Assembly: GCF_000143415.4 (NCBI RefSeq)
Contig: NW_003314470.1
Coordinates: forward strand, 26,858 to 34,055
Length of the DNA stretch: 7,198 nt
Direction of reading: 5' to 3'
From: Selaginella moellendorffii
Taxonomy: Eukaryota; Plantae; Lycopodiophyta
Shown in pieces: positions 631 through 7,198 of the stretch. The notes beneath the pieces are model-generated. The model searched no databases. It worked only from the letters and a program-made list of their open reading frames with translations, and was not told the origin of the DNA. The translations under genes were made by a program, and so were the position numbers. Numbering within the stretch: position 1 is the first letter of the stretch; the number at the start of each line of letters is the position of its first letter.

Positions 631-1292
631 AGGGAAGATCGACGTCCTCGTCGATGCACACTCGAGTCTAGAATACCGCCAAGGAAACAACTCTAGAAAA
701 AGTTCACGGTATTCACACTATGTGAGAAATGCACCAACTTAAATGAGTTAAAGGGAACCTCTGTGTCTAATGCGGATGCACTACCAGCTCAGACACCTTC
801 CGGCCGTCGCCGACAAGGAAATGACCAACGGAGTTAGCCACCCTTGCTGCTCTAGTTGTCATCCAGCTTACAAAAGTGTGATATGCCCTGCCCCAGAGAC
901 ATAGAGAGAGGAGCCAGGGGCCCCAACCCTCCTGAGCAAAGAAACCAAACCCGTCGGTAAGGTTTAGATAGACTACTATAAACATGCAGTTAGAGTTGTT
1001 TACACGGTCACGCCCTTTCAACGGAATAAGGAACATCGACAGAGAGGCGGGTTATGTGACCAGTCTACAGTAGCTACCCCATGACTAGAGATTTCAACAT
1101 GCACACGAAGTGCCGAAGCCAGTCTGCCTATACTGGCCCAAGTTCAAAGATCAATAGATGGACAATATCAAAGTCATAGACAATGATATCTTAAAGTCTT
1201 AATTATCAGTGTGTAAGGAACCAACTCGCCGAGGTGTCGTAGGCTAAAGGAACCCCGAAAGCATGACCAAAATGACAAAGAGTTCATTGGAT

Positions 1293-1578
1293 GGGACCAA
1301 GTCGAAGATCGAGTCCAAGACCGACTCTAGGACCGAGTTCGAGATCGAGTTCGGAATTGAGTCCGAGACCGAATCGGGGACCGAGTTCGAGTCCGAGTTC
1401 GAGACCGAGTTCGAGACGGAGTCCGAGATCCGAAATCGGGTCCGAGACCGAGTCCGAGGTCGAGTCCGAGGTCGGGTCCGAGATCGGGTCCGAGATCGAG
1501 TCCGAGATCGAGTCCGAAACCGAATCTGAAGTCGGATCCGAAATTGGGTCCAAGATCGAGCCAGAGACTAAGTCCAAA
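1293..1578 (+). repeat. Degenerate 12-bp (2 x 6 bp) CpG-rich tandem array inside the LTR, consensus approximately GAGTCCGAGATC / GAGTTCGAGACC
   Basis: Read directly, e.g. gagttcgagaccgagttcgagacggagtccgagatc; roughly two dozen units. It generates the low-complexity ORFs at 1263-1584. Confidence 0.92.
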
Positions 1579-1623
1579 TACTAATACGGGTCAAGGGGTG
1601 AAAGCCCAAAGCGTGCGTCTCCC

Positions 1624-1642
1624 GGGGGGGGGGGGGGGGGGG
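1624..1642 (+). repeat. G19 homopolymer
   Basis: 19 consecutive G shortly before the assembly gap; the length may be unreliable. Confidence 0.85.
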
Positions 1643-1661
1643 CTTCCGGTTCCAAAAGTAT

Positions 1662-1823
1662 NNNNNNNNNNNNNNNNNNNNNNNNNNNNNNNNNNNNNNN
1701 NNNNNNNNNNNNNNNNNNNNNNNNNNNNNNNNNNNNNNNNNNNNNNNNNNNNNNNNNNNNNNNNNNNNNNNNNNNNNNNNNNNNNNNNNNNNNNNNNNNN
1801 NNNNNNNNNNNNNNNNNNNNNNN
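1662..1823. other. Assembly gap (162 N)
   Basis: Run of N. Confidence 1.
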
Positions 1824-2325
1824 CTCCCACTCCCGAAAGGGAAACCGATTGCGGTGCTCCCGGCTCATGTGGAGTGGTGCCCCACTTGAGTACCATGCGG
1901 CTCATTGGTCCTCGCCCTTCCTAGGGGCTTGGGCCTTCCTTCGGGATGGAAGTGGGGGGCGAGAGGTACCCATACCGGGCCGCTAGGCCACGGTGTTTCG
2001 CCCCGGCGTCCCGAAGCAAGTGTTGCACCCAAGACTTGGGATTTAGAGGGTCCCATGATCAAGTCTTGTGGTACCAAAGGATGTTAGGAACCTGGAAGCT
2101 TGGTGTGCTTGGCTGCTTGTGCTTGCGGGGAGTGTAGCCGAACCTTAAGTCCAGTCTAACCCAGGGAGGGGGATTGGGAGTGATTTGGGAATCCGTGGAT
2201 GGATGGCTAACACTCCGTTGCTTGTGCAGTGAGTAGCTGAGACCAAGTAGGAGCTGGTACCATAGGCGAGAACCTTGGCAAGGGAACTTAGCAAAAGCCA
2301 AGGCGGTGTTGGACGGATAGACGAG

Positions 2326-2391
2326 GTAAGCTGGCAAATTGGAAAGGAAAAATTTGTGGCTTACAATTTGGTATCGGAGCCTTTTCCTCAG
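2326..2391 (+). other. Candidate 66-nt spliceosomal leader intron spanning the U5 end and PBS
   Basis: Donor GAG|GTAAGC at 2326; acceptor CTTTTCCTCAG| at 2391 (alternative TTCTAG at 2397); lies 33 nt before the gag ATG. No reading-frame constraint is available to confirm it. Confidence 0.5.
2369..2381 (+). other. Primer binding site for plant initiator tRNA-Met
   Basis: TGGTATCGGAGCC versus the canonical plant TGGTATCAGAGCC (12/13; the difference allows a G:U pair), 3 nt after the LTR-terminal CA. Confidence 0.92.
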
Positions 2392-2424
2392 TTCTAGCGA
2401 AGGATAGAGGCGGATTGCTGGGAG

Positions 2425-3600
2425 ATGGCAAGGGTAGGGCGTAAGCGAACCCAGGCGGAGACGGAACCTCCGCTAGAGCTGGAGCCTCCGGTTGAACAAG
2501 AGGCTATGGATGAGGAATCCTTGCATGAGGAGGACTCCAGTGAGGAAACTTCCAAATAGGAGTCCGGTGGCGAGGTTCGGTCGTCCAAGGCTCGATTGGA
2601 CGTGCTAGAAGGACAGTTGGCACAGACCAATGCCCTGCTGGAGACTCTCGTATGCAAGTTAAAGCGTGACGAGAAGCGGAAGAAAAAGCGAAAGACTGCG
2701 GATGCTGGCAGCGCAGAAGGTGCGGACCCTTCGGCAGGGACTGAGGCAAAACCAGACAAGGTCGAACAGACCGAAGTGGAATCAGTGCCTCAGGCAGTTC
2801 CCAAGTACAAACCAAAGCCCCCACCGGTGTTCAAGGGAGTGAACGACTATAAGGTTGTGGAGGATTGGTTTTACGATATGGAGGACTACTTCCGAGCGTT
2901 GCGGTTACCGGGCTCGGAGAAGGTCCCATGTGCAAAACCATACTTGGCAGATAATGCCAAGTCTTGGTGGAGAATAACGGAGGCCAACGAAGGACCGGTG
3001 GCCACCTGGGACATGATGAAGGCGAGGATCCGTGCAACATACGTTCCTCCGAATGCCACTCTGCATCTGAGAGATGAGCTGAGTAGGCTGAAGCAGACTG
3101 GAACCATCCAGGAATATGTGAATGGGTTCATGGCAAAGAGGATACTTGTCATGGACATGGGGATATGGATGCGTTCCATGCCTTTATATCAAGTTTGCAA
3201 ACCTGGGCTCGCGGTGAGGTGATGCGCTGGAACCCGACCAACTACAAGGAAGCGTTGGATGCGGCCATCAAGGTGCATTTCAACGATAACCTGCGAAAGG
3301 GGAACACGACGGGGTCGGGATCCACGTTTCACAAAGGGGCCAAACCGAGGGGAACATATAGCAAGGGGAAATTCAAGAAGAGTTTCTCTAAGAATGAGTC
3401 CTCGGGGTTCCGGAAAGGCAAATCTGGTGGCCAGTGAGCGAGTACGTGGGGGAGTCAAGCGAAAAAAGACAAACCCACGGATAAGAAGGCCAAGTCGTAT
3501 AGCAGCGTGGGAAACAACGTATGCTACAACTGCGGCGAAGCGGGACACTTCTCGAGGGAATGTCCCTACCCGAAGAAGGCCAGAGCCAATATGGCCATCA
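2425..3600 (+). pseudogene. gag: Gag region (retrotransposon capsid-like domain plus CCHC zinc knuckle at 3522-3563)
   Basis: PPVFKG...VEDWFYDMEDYF...AKSWW...TWDMMK...LKQTGTIQEY, and CYNCGEAGHFSREC (CX2CX4HX4C). Boundaries approximate. Confidence 0.9.
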
Positions 3601-3695
3601 AGTCGGGTGAAGTCCAAACTGAGGTATGTGATCCAGTCCCTAACTCAAAGTTACTCATTACACGAGCAACTTTGGTAGAGAGTCGTTCGCGACAT

Positions 3696-3983
3696 CTACT
3701 AGCCCTCCGAGGGAAGCTCGGAGGTAGCTTTGTTAAGATCCTTATTAACACAGGTGCTTCGGATAATTTTGTGGCTGCAGACATAGTCCGGCAAGCCGGA
3801 CTAACGGTGCAGCAGCTAGGCGAACCAAGGACTATAGAGTTTGTTTAGGGTAGCCAAAGCACCGATGAGGTACTTCGACAAGCGAGAGTTGAAGTGGGGA
3901 CATGGAAAGTGGACATGGATTTCACCGTCTTGGACATGGCGGGATTTGACGTGATCTTCGGAATGGATTGGTTTAATCGGTTC
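3696..3983 (+). pseudogene. Retropepsin-type aspartic protease domain (inactivated)
   Basis: ILINTGASDNFV (D[ST]G motif with D changed to N at 3747) and DVIFGMDW; interrupted by TAG at 3846. Boundaries approximate. Confidence 0.88.
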
Positions 3984-4289
3984 GTGGTAGCCCTGCATGG
4001 ACAACGTAGGAACCTTGTGGTATTGGCGAATGCCCAAGGAAGAAGATCTAGGGTGGAGGCCCAGGATCTAAAGGTAGGGCAAAGCAAGGCCAAAGAGTCA
4101 TGCTTAAACCTGGTGTCCACGAGAGGACAACTCACTAGAGGAACTAAGGTAGCCTTTTTGTGCTTACTCTCGGTGAAGAGTGACAAAAAGACAAGAACGG
4201 AAGAAGTACCTTTAGTGATCCAGCAGGTGCTGGACCAATTCCAGGATACCATGCCGGAGGAGCTACCGGCGGGGTTGCCCCCCGCACGA

Positions 4290-5180
4290 CCGATAGAACA
4301 TAAGATTGAGCTGGTCGAGGGTGCTGAGGCGGTGGTTTGTCCACCCTATCAATTGAACGAAAAAGAACTCAAGGAGCTCAAGAGCCAACTCGAGGAGTTG
4401 GTGGACAAAGGGTATGTTAGGTTGAGCAAGTTGCCGTATGGGGCGCCGGTGCTATTTGTGAAAAAGAAAGATGGATCTATGCGCATGTGCATAGACTACC
4501 GGTTGCTCAACAAGTATACCAAGAAGAATAAGTACCCTTTGCCAAGGATCGAGGACCTGTTCGATAGGTTGGGAAAGGCAAAATACTTCTCGAGGATTGA
4601 CCTAAGGTCAGGATACTACCAGATCAGGGTAGCCGAGGAAGATGTCGAGAAGACAACCTGTCGAACGAGGTATGGGAGCTTTGAGTTTCTGGTGATGCCC
4701 TTTGGGCTGTGCAATGCGCCGGCAACGTTTTCGGCGTTGATGAACCACATATTTGTACCCTATCTGGATCACTTCGTGGTCGTCTATATCGATGATATCC
4801 TGATCTATAGCGAGACACTAGAGGAGCATGCCGAACACTTGGCGAAGGTGTTTGAGAAACTAAGGGAACACAAACTGTATGCTAAAGAGAGCAAATGTGA
4901 CTTTGCTCAACAAGAGGTAAAGTTTCTCGGGCATGTGGTGGGCCAGGACGGGCTCAAGGTGGATCCGGAGAAGGTCCAAGCGATCCAGGAATGGGAGCGA
5001 CCTTCAAATGTACATGAGTTGAGGGCGTTCTTGGGGCTATGCAACTACTATCGAAAGTTTATCAGACACTATTCGAGAGTAGCCCTGCCCTTAACGGACC
5101 AAACCGGAAAAGGGAAGATGGTATGGACAGCGGAATGCGAGGCGGCATTCGTCCACCTCAAAGGGAAGTTGAGGAAGGCT
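4290..5180 (+). CDS. pol: Reverse transcriptase domain
   Basis: [54 protein letters not shown] (4785-4796), [18 protein letters not shown]. Boundaries approximate. Confidence 0.97.
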
Positions 5181-5199
5181 CCGGTGTTGGCATTACCAG

Positions 5200-5560
5200 A
5201 TTTTGGTAAGGACTTTGAGGTAGACACGGATGCTTCGGACTTTGCGTTGGGCGCAGTTTTGAAGCAAGACAACCATCCAGTAGCGTTCTTCTCGAAGAAG
5301 TTGGACAAGGCTCAACGGAAGTGGCCTGCCCACGAGAAGGAATTGTTTGCGGTGGTCAAGGCGCTCAAGGAGTGGCGACACTACCTTGGGAGACACTTCA
5401 AGGTTTACACGGACAATGTGGCAACGAAACACTTCTTGTCACAGCTCGACCTGAGAGGGAAACAAGGTCGGTGGGCCAATGCCTTGGCCGAGTTTGATTG
5501 CGAGATTCTGTACAAGCCTGGGAAGAGCAACATCGTGGCAGATGCGCTAAGTCGAAAAGT
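5200..5560 (+). CDS. pol: RNase H domain (Ty3/gypsy type)
   Basis: [34 protein letters not shown]. Boundaries approximate. Confidence 0.95.
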
Positions 5561-5759
5561 GAGCTTGAGGTTGGCGATATTCAGCGCAACAGCAACCTTC
5601 TGGGACGATGTGCGGACAGCATATGAGAACGATGGTCTAGCACAAGAAGTGTTGTTGAGGAATCTGGAGGCGCGGGCAGCTCACCAGAGAGGTGAGCTGC
5701 CAACGGAAGAGAAAACGGGCTATGCGGAACACAACGGACTCATTTATTACAAGCAAACG

Positions 5760-6930
5760 AGGGTATATGTTCCAGAAGGGGGACTAAGGAAGGTAGCCTT
5801 AGAAGAGTGTCATGACGGACCTCTTGCGGGACACGGCGGAGTGCCCAAGACGATGGGCTTACTCAAGAGGAAGTACCATTGGCCAGATATGGCTAAGGAC
5901 GTCCAAGACTATGTAAAGACATGTCCAACATGTCAGCAAGTCAAAGCCGTGACTAAGGCTAGTGGGGGCTTGTTGCAAAGCATCCCAATTCCAGATCGTC
6001 CGTGGAAATGTCTTACGATGGACTTCATCACGGGACTACCCCCAAGTGAGGGGTTCGATGCGATATTCGTGGTGGTGGATCGATTTTCGAAGATGGCACA
6101 TTTCATACCCACCACAACGGAAGTGGATGCGGAAGGTGTGGCGAAGCTGTTCTTCGAACAAGTGGTTCGAGTGCGGGGAAGGCCAGAAGAGATTATCTCA
6201 GATCGAGATAAGATATTCACTAGTAGGTTCTGGAGGACCCTCCTGGAACAGTATCGCACCAAGTTGAAATTCAGCACAGCCTATCACCCACAGACAGGTA
6301 TGGGGTATTAAGTCAAGTTTGGTGGTCCTAACACTTCTTGACAGACGGACAAACGGAAAGGGTGAATAGGCAGCTAGAGGATTATTTGCGATGCTATGTC
6401 TCGGGAGACCAGACCGATTGGGTAAGTCATTTGGGACTTGCGGAAATGTGTTATAGCAACTCACCACATTCGAGTATCGGGGTGAGTCCATGGGAAGTCA
6501 TCAATGGGCGAGCTATTGAAGGTCCTGTGGAACTCGGCGTGGCCGAGTATCATGGAGAGTTACCCGCAGTGGAGGCATTCACGGCGGAAAGACTCAACAT
6601 TTGGAATCTAGTGAGGGATTCCCTGGAACGGGCTCAACAAAGGCAAACCAAGTACGCGAACCTAAAGCGCCGGGATGTAGAGTTCCAAGCTGGGGAGAAG
6701 GTGTGGCTGAACACCAAGAACCTCAGGCTACCAAGTGGGATCAGCCGAAAGTTGACCCAAAGGTAAAAATGCATGTATTCCTGTAAATGAATTGATCTTG
6801 AGTTCCTTAAGCAGGTTCGCGAGGCCTTACGAGATTGAGGCACGAATCGGTAAAGTGGCTTACCGACTCTGACTTCCTCGAGAGATGGGGAAGATGCACC
6901 CAGTGTTCCATGTGAACTTACTCAAGCCGT
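5760..6930 (+). CDS. pol: Integrase (HHCC, DDE core, GPY/F region) in three putative exons
   Basis: [11 protein letters not shown]...CPTCQ. Catalytic D at 6021 (TMDFITGLP), D at 6201 (ISDRD), E at 6356 (DGQTER). KLTQRFARPY...AYRL...HPVFHV is read after splicing. Confidence 0.93.
6298..6344 (+). other. Putative spliceosomal intron 1 in integrase (47 nt, phase 1)
   Basis: CAG|GTATGG donor, CTAAC branch motif (6328-6332), TTCTTGACAG| acceptor. Removal gives CAC CCA CAG ACA G/AC GGA CAA ACG GAA = HPQTDGQTE and restores D-35-E. Contains in-frame TAA at 6309. Confidence 0.85.
6763..6814 (+). other. Putative spliceosomal intron 2 in integrase (52 nt, phase 2)
   Basis: AAG|GTAAAA donor and TAAGCAG|G acceptor; AT-rich (17/52 G+C). 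Removal gives [23 protein letters not shown], in frame with ORF 6885. Contains in-frame TAA at 6764. Confidence 0.85.
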
Positions 6931-6995
6931 ACTTTGAGGATCCGCTTCGCAAGGACCAAGTAAGACCTTTACCTGAGGTTATCCAAGGGGAAGAG

Positions 6996-7142
6996 GAATA
7001 CGAAGTCGAGGCCATACTCAATGCGCGCAAGAGCAAGCGACAAGGACGCGTGGTGAGAGAGTTCCATGTGAAGTGGAAAGGATTTCCACACTGCGAAGCA
7101 ACATGGGAACCGAAGGAGAACCTAGCGAAATGTCCGCTTCTA
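6996..7142 (+). CDS. Chromodomain at the integrase C-terminus (aromatic-cage type)
   Basis: EYEVEAIL...EFHVKWKGFPHCEATWEPKENL; the three cage aromatics (Y of YEVE, W and F of KWKGF) are present. Confidence 0.93.
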
Positions 7143-7198
7143 TGAGTACAATATTGCTCGAGCTGCACTGCCGTCTTCCGCCCTCCCCGGCCCACCCC

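Follow-up and report, generated by a model that had tools for sequence, protein, structure and literature searches.

A chromodomain Ty3/gypsy retrotransposon of Selaginella moellendorffii with probable introns in its integrase and across its primer binding site

The window (the whole stretch of DNA that was analysed, 7,198 nt) contains a copy of a Ty3/gypsy LTR retrotransposon interrupted by four introns, which are very probably real, spliced and family-wide. Two of them lie inside integrase motifs, while the first spans the end of the 5' LTR and the primer binding site (PBS), so that its removal deletes the PBS. We favour this gate at the PBS, with a probability of about 0.6, as the main reason why the introns have been retained. 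The picture as a whole, of an LTR retrotransposon with a host-gene-like four-intron structure and its own PBS in intron 1, in which splicing bars the message from being copied, genome and message are separate, integrase comes from spliced RNA only, and pol introns can be gained and fixed across hundreds of copies, has in our judgement an even chance of being correct.

Architecture and identity of the element

The plus strand of the window carries, as recognised by Pfam, the gag, zinc knuckle, protease, reverse transcriptase (RT), RNase H, integrase and chromodomain of a Ty3/gypsy element. They are arranged in the chromovirus order gag-PR-RT-RH-IN followed by a C-terminal chromodomain, and the LTR ends in CA at 2365 ahead of the PBS at 2369-2381.

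1235..2365, plus strand: 5' LTR, its end shown and its start placed across an assembly gap (1662-1823)
2326..2391, plus strand: intron 1, 66 nt, GTAAGC..CTCAG, in the leader
2369..2381, plus strand: PBS of presumed tRNA-Met type (TGGTATCGGAGCC), 13 nt, 3 nt behind the LTR end
2425..3623, plus strand: gag, from the first ATG after the leader, with Retrotrans_gag and a zinc knuckle at about 3516-3566
3624..3780, plus strand: intron 2, 157 nt, GTATGT..TGCAG
3781..6297, plus strand: rest of the protease, RT, RNase H, integrase zinc domain and integrase core up to HPQT (Pfam)
about 4458-4937, plus strand: RT (Pfam)
about 5124-5495, plus strand: RNase H (Pfam)
6298..6344, plus strand: intron 3, 47 nt, phase 1, splitting HPQT-D-GQTE of the integrase core
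6345..6762, plus strand: integrase exon with the catalytic Glu (6356-6358), from the homolog alignment
6763..6814, plus strand: intron 4, 52 nt, phase 2, GTAAAA..AGCAG
6815..7129, plus strand: final integrase exon, carrying a group I chromodomain (at about 6999-7129; Pfam Chromo)

Four sequencing runs were aligned to positions 1830-7198: X1 (DNA), X15 (RNA by guess), and X22 and X23 (raw RNA). The 3' end of the 5' LTR was set at 2365, behind which 37 X1 contigs diverge into unlike sequence (agreement 0.38), and X1 depth over 1830-2366 is about twice that of the internal part of the element, in support of an LTR. The LTR terminates in TTACA, and taking the TG at 1235 as its start gives a length of 1131 nt, within the published range of 1076-1146. 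It contains a poly-G tract of 19 G (1624-1642), 742 nt upstream of its end, and directly before this tract, in the probable U3 (1286-1584), a degenerate tandem repeat of 6 and 12 nt with GAGTCC/GAGATC units. The integrase catalytic D residues at 6021 and 6201 lie upstream of intron 3, and the alignment of the Ty3 Gag-Pol chain 7q5b to the element ends at HPQT, where intron 3 begins.

The copy in the window is dead: it has in-frame stops at 2557 and 3435 (gag), 3846 (pol) and 6870 (last integrase exon), a one-base frameshift near 3158 in gag, and it departs from the family sequence after 7129, where 37 X1 contigs and X15 continue differently. No 3' LTR of the element is present within the window, the copy ending at 7129; the sequence at 7130-7198 is unlike the family continuation in X1 and X15, the window copy being truncated or joined to other DNA. 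Copy differences between the window and X1 (1830-7198) comprise 164 C>T and 190 G>A among 533 places, and a dominance of these two classes is expected from methylation-driven decay. On the minus strand of positions 1-630, a polypurine tract (AGGGGGGGAGAG, 619-630) is followed by TGTCGCG, which is likely the 3' LTR of another, oppositely oriented LTR element. Part of that LTR (48-114) resembles the LTR of the present element at 1551-1618, with arms 96% and 76% complementary, and the opposite element may belong to a related family.

What the window contains is a degenerate member of a chromodomain Ty3/gypsy family present in many copies, and it likely belongs to SM1-Galahad of S. moellendorffii (Novikov et al. 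2012, PMC3350952), an assignment based on the lengths of the ORFs, the poly-G of the LTR, the PBS and the RT tree, in which numbers and not sequences were compared. According to the accessible text of that paper, SM1-Galahad belongs to a Galadriel-related clade and has hundreds of copies that are about 95% alike; in its consensus, built from several copies, the LTRs exceed 1 kb and include a poly-G of 11-25 bp, the PBS (13 bp) is of the tRNA-Met type, and a 3885-bp ORF ending in the core integrase without a chromodomain is followed by two short ones, of 316 bp and of 309 bp, the second of which encodes a group I chromodomain. The sister family SM2-Galahad, from the same genome, is described there with one unbroken 4731-bp ORF, and no intact SM1-Galahad copy was found by the describers, as far as that text goes. 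In the window, the long ORF, read from the ATG at 2425 as far as the stop within intron 3, measures 3884 nt (this copy being frameshifted), the unspliced exon 6345..6762 yields an ORF of 318 nt from ATG 6446 to TAA 6764 inside intron 4, 2 nt apart from the published 316, and the chromodomain ORF starts at 6885 in a copy that ends at 7129. The poly-G of 19 and the PBS of 13 nt also agree; the PBS is presumably of the tRNA-Met type, in line with the 13-bp PBS of PMC3350952. The stops inside introns 3 and 4 would account for the 3885-bp ORF and the two short ORFs of the consensus. In the main text of PMC3350952, which treats the pieces as separate ORFs, neither 'intron' nor 'splic' occurs. The family has probably already been named, and its split ORFs, in print without the intron reading, were probably misread.

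In a tree of RT-RH sequences the element comes out as sister (SH-aLRT 98) to seed-plant elements that have a single ORF, from Melia, Camellia, Cinchona and Vitis, a position that agrees with the accessible text of PMC3350952 on Galahad and Galadriel; the tree was obtained by a quick method from 30 rows, 3 chosen rows having been dropped for short alignment, and the sister rows carry no clade label. A second tree gave the same seed-plant grouping. Protein searches found no members of the family (best RT-RH identity 62%), and no relative was confirmed by protein pattern among 12 viral and 75 prokaryote stretches. One protein, P0169, matches SM2-Galahad in length (1577 aa) but groups elsewhere in the trees, and the match was put down to coincidence. 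Galahad and Selaginella are named together in only two papers of the full-text literature searched.

Four introns and their exact removal

The original prediction held that a 47-nt GT...CTAAC...CAG insert splits the HPQT-D-GQTER motif of the integrase core, and this insert proved to be real. Intron 3 starts with GTATGG, ends with GACAG and has CTAAC at 6328, 17 nt from its end. Among 268 fetched homologs, 219 had an alignment reaching both exon ends, and 216 of these are continuous, with exactly one residue (the split codon) between the exon ends, so that the 47-nt segment is an insertion and not divergence. Without it, E6356 lies 36 codons after D6201 with 35 residues between them, i.e. the D,D-35-E spacing; the predicted spacing therefore stands, while the phrase '35 residues after' misstated the distance. 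If intron 3 is retained, the pol frame stops at the in-frame TAA 6309-6311, before the catalytic Glu, as had been claimed, and on this reading of the sequence integrase activity would depend on splicing. Viral contigs, scanned with patterns that each fixed one codon choice, gave no match to an intron placed identically in the integrase. Two metagenome matches to such a pattern (L001 and L002) were rejected as chance hits in unrelated genes, neither matching the element: L001, which may be importin-like, is an unbroken eukaryotic coding sequence, and L002 is bacterial.

Four contigs of X15 were aligned, three of which tile 2214-7129 and skip four stretches (raw skips 2324-2389, 3622-3778, 6293-6339 and 6761-6812) with contiguous contig coordinates; contig 12, for example, is composed of the pieces 4545-6292, 6340-6760 and 6813-7129. 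For each skip, sliding yields a single possible GT..AG cut on the sense strand of the element, at 2326-2391 (contig 10), 3624-3780 (contig 11), and 6298-6344 and 6763-6814 (both contig 12), and in these contigs the removal of intron 3 is exact to the base, as originally proposed. A random gap of 47 nt can be slid to GT..AG at 33 of 4553 positions, and gaps of the other three lengths at 48 of 4534, 55 of 4443 and 48 of 4548; at about 1 in 100 per gap, four of four by chance would have a probability of about 1e-8. The exact removal of four introns is likely, seen in one run and in three separate contigs rather than in one proven molecule.

Piece by piece, X15 and the window differ by 2-7%, so that X15 comes from another copy of the family. 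It is probably RNA: it has 4 long contigs compared with 73,653 contigs in the DNA run X1, and in the bin of intron 2 its depth is 0.95, compared with 7.7 in the adjacent sequence, whereas the depth of X1 stays even (940,082, compared with 1,049,954 and 969,894). The joint foreseen for expressed copies was accordingly found, in contigs and not in reads, in what is probably an expressed copy, 3-5% different from that of the window. Were X15 a processed genomic copy, that copy would still have been made from spliced RNA. From X22 and X23 (about 12% of each run), 61 and 26 reads were aligned, mostly to the LTR at 1834-2190, too few falling over the integrase. In X22, X23 and X15 alike, this piece is flanked at both ends by one and the same foreign sequence, on one strand, and is an LTR fragment within a steadily expressed host transcript.

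The earlier analysis had dealt with one intron, and neither the three further introns nor the already published split ORFs figured in it. Intron 1 precedes the first ATG and takes in the final 40 nt of the LTR (U5), the 3-nt spacer and the whole PBS. Its donor agrees with AG|GTAAGT at 7 of 8 positions, among the top 3 of the 283 GT sites in the element; its 3' end is not a copy of the upstream exon, the feature of self-regenerating LTR introns, and can be slid by 2 nt only. Folding of the leader (2214-2450) was no better than that of shuffled sequences (z -0.84). Intron 2 is coding when retained, encoding the front half of the protease with the position of the active-site motif, and is colinear with the zinc knuckle-protease stretch of homologous polyproteins; protease Pfam matches in this region fall below the cut-off. 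When it is removed, the frame meets TAG at 3784-3786 and Gag ends at about 400 codons. Intron 4 splits the KL..RF.GPY motif in the C-terminal part of the integrase, has an in-frame TAA at 6764-6766, and lies at a site where 51 of 58 homologs are continuous. Of introns 1, 3 and 4, for which T-richness was computed, introns 3 and 4 rank in the top 4% and 2% of windows, and the two are of similar short length. U2-type features (GT..AG ends, a branch-like motif, a T-rich body) are present, the branch-like motifs being weak in introns 2 and 4. As regards an origin as introners (transposon-derived introns), which may be bounded by target-site duplications, the flank repeats of introns 3 and 4 reach only 5 nt (GACAG) and 4 nt (AGGT), which is largely expected from the splice consensus.

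Occurrence in the family and explanations for intron retention

That the inserts are family-wide and not private is most likely. Eleven X1 DNA contigs match intron 3 from 6328 on, i.e. its 3' half, with a different stretch before it, and the consensus of SM1-Galahad, if the identity is right, is itself broken at introns 3 and 4, which would place these introns in most copies; on the question whether the insert is shared, raised with the original prediction, DNA contigs and the ORF length of a published multi-copy consensus indicate that it probably is. Of the 81 joints in X1, the 15 with the best support (depth 222 or more, against a summed depth of about 1e6) include none of the four, some joints being uncounted. 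In the 179-nt bins with introns 3 and 4, X1 depth is 21% and 13% below the mean of the neighbours; total absence of the introns would lower these bins by 22% and 29%, and the other bins range from 0.74 to 1.37 million. These dips lie within the bin-to-bin noise, yet they may be compatible with some intronless share. Eighteen of 25 pol differences between the window and X15 fall at third codon positions (among 40 of 570 entries, ending at 5731), and the exons after intron 3 differ from X15 by 3.6% and 2.8%, with no gaps, compared with 3.4% for RT-IN before intron 3. The third-position bias, together with exons after intron 3 that are no more diverged, argues that the family was under constraint.

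In the model that we prefer, three RNAs would be made from one promoter. The unspliced genomic RNA would keep U5 and the PBS, and would be packaged and copied, passing all introns to new insertions; if translated, it would yield Gag-PR-RT-RH and an integrase cut before the catalytic Glu. An RNA without introns 1, 3 and 4 but with intron 2, a predicted form, would be the sole source of the whole integrase and the chromodomain, and the fully spliced RNA would give Gag alone (about 400 codons). Pieces of the fully spliced RNA dominate X15, and the Gag-Pol isoform retaining intron 2 was not observed there, which counts against the model. So does the long 3' UTR, containing two junctions, that the fully spliced RNA would carry: by the argument of PMC5580714 (accessible text), such an RNA is likely a target of decay. 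The model supposes that intron 1, with its strong donor, is spliced first and is removed whenever introns 3 and 4 are: since the PBS lies within intron 1, an RNA that has lost this intron could not be primed, and it is the unspliced RNA that would be copied. The gate is leaky, as an RNA that keeps intron 1 but loses introns 3 and 4 would found an intact intronless lineage, and the unbroken ORF described for SM2-Galahad (PMC3350952, accessible text) indicates that an intronless state is viable, which counts against the gate.

It is very improbable that the insert is private to the window copy or a minor branch, with X15 representing the ordinary element without introns, either as DNA or as transcripts of copies that lack them. 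Such a reading can draw on the X1 dips and on the status of X15 as RNA by guess only; however, X15 also lacks the PBS, the LTR end and the front of the protease, all of which a transposing copy needs, the sequence of intron 2 is at full depth in X1 DNA, X1 contigs carry variants of intron 3 with no strong DNA joint, and the published consensus is split, judged by length, at the same two places (PMC3350952, accessible text). Somewhat less remote, but still improbable, is a family that is integrase-defective, in which two inserts broke the integrase, the enzyme is borrowed from a sister such as SM2-Galahad, and the host splices stray transcripts with no role in transposition. The decayed window copy, the dominant form in X15, which encodes no Pol, and, in the accessible text of PMC3350952, the failure of the describers to find an intact copy and the unbroken sister family in the same genome would all fit. 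Against this stand two independent inserts, both GT..AG, which restore the frame exactly and are skipped exactly, and downstream exons in which reading frame, motifs and chromodomain are preserved and divergence is no faster than in RT.

A further explanation, which we regard as unlikely but worth weighing, accepts the introns as real, family-wide and spliced, and has them kept otherwise than by the gate, the position of intron 1 over the PBS being a by-product. The genomic RNA might form a separate pool that escapes splicing entirely, through another start site or Gag-bound export, or intronless copies might arise and be outcompeted, introns being of help to expression or in evading silencing. 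The intron evidence is the same as for the gate, and Ogre and EVADE keep their intron by partial splicing, with no PBS-removing intron described for them in the accessible texts. On the other side, the donor of intron 1 ranks among the top three in the element, the cut of this intron removes exactly the LTR end and the PBS, and no alternative start or export signal was found in support of this explanation. We retain the gate at the PBS as the preferred reading.

Relation to known intron-bearing retroelements

That an intron disappears when an element transposes is the classic demonstration of retrotransposition. For a family that has succeeded with two integrase introns, some rule must prevent the copying of spliced RNA, and a PBS located within intron 1 offers a simple and testable one. 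Foamy viruses have an enzyme mRNA distinct from the genomic RNA, as in the proposed model; their Pol is made from a spliced mRNA that has lost gag but in which pol is uninterrupted. In retroviruses, it is the missing packaging signal that excludes spliced RNAs, and introns within integrase are not known to play this part.

Plant LTR elements are generally without introns except for Ogre and EVADE, according to the accessible part of a 2025 review (PMC12786077). In EVADE and other Ty1/copia elements (PMC5580714, PMC12786077, accessible texts), an intron lies over the protease and its removal leads to a frameshift stop and Gag alone, much as for intron 2. These elements have one intron, coding when retained, so that the genomic RNA is the Gag-Pol mRNA, whereas here Pol itself would need splicing; moreover, their splicing is coupled to early termination (PMC5580714), while the spliced RNA here runs on into pol. 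Conserved splicing of the EVADE type was not found in Arabidopsis Ty3/gypsy elements, in the part of PMC5580714 available. In Ogre (PMC6317226, PMC12786077, accessible texts), as here, a Ty3/gypsy polyprotein gene is interrupted by a non-coding intron, which has to be spliced out for the whole polyprotein and is kept in genomic copies; it is a single intron of about 270 bp between PR and RT, in contrast to two host-sized introns inside integrase motifs and a PBS-removing leader intron. In Penelope-like elements and Chlamys-3_cRei (PMC8557442, accessible text), introns are retained, and a 5' UTR intron spans the boundary of terminal repeat and body, like intron 1, but these are not LTR elements and have neither tRNA priming nor a DDE integrase, and the reason for retention is stated there as unknown. 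From partial sources, env is spliced in Athila, and maize LTR elements have internal introns, the accessible text making no mention of PBS or integrase; in the accessible parts of PMC9940879 and PMC2864245, introns of such elements are not mentioned. The searchable full-text literature yielded no LTR element that has introns in the integrase or an intron over the PBS; a prior annotation may exist in subscription papers or repeat databases. By its integrase introns and its intron over the PBS, the present element is an intron-bearing LTR element that differs from the known ones.

If the proposed reading is true, it shows how a retroelement separates genome from message, with integrase placed under splicing control. 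It would also offer a datable intron gain inside an element, the sister family SM2-Galahad being described as unbroken, and the split pol ORFs found in repeat libraries may represent introns and not decay.
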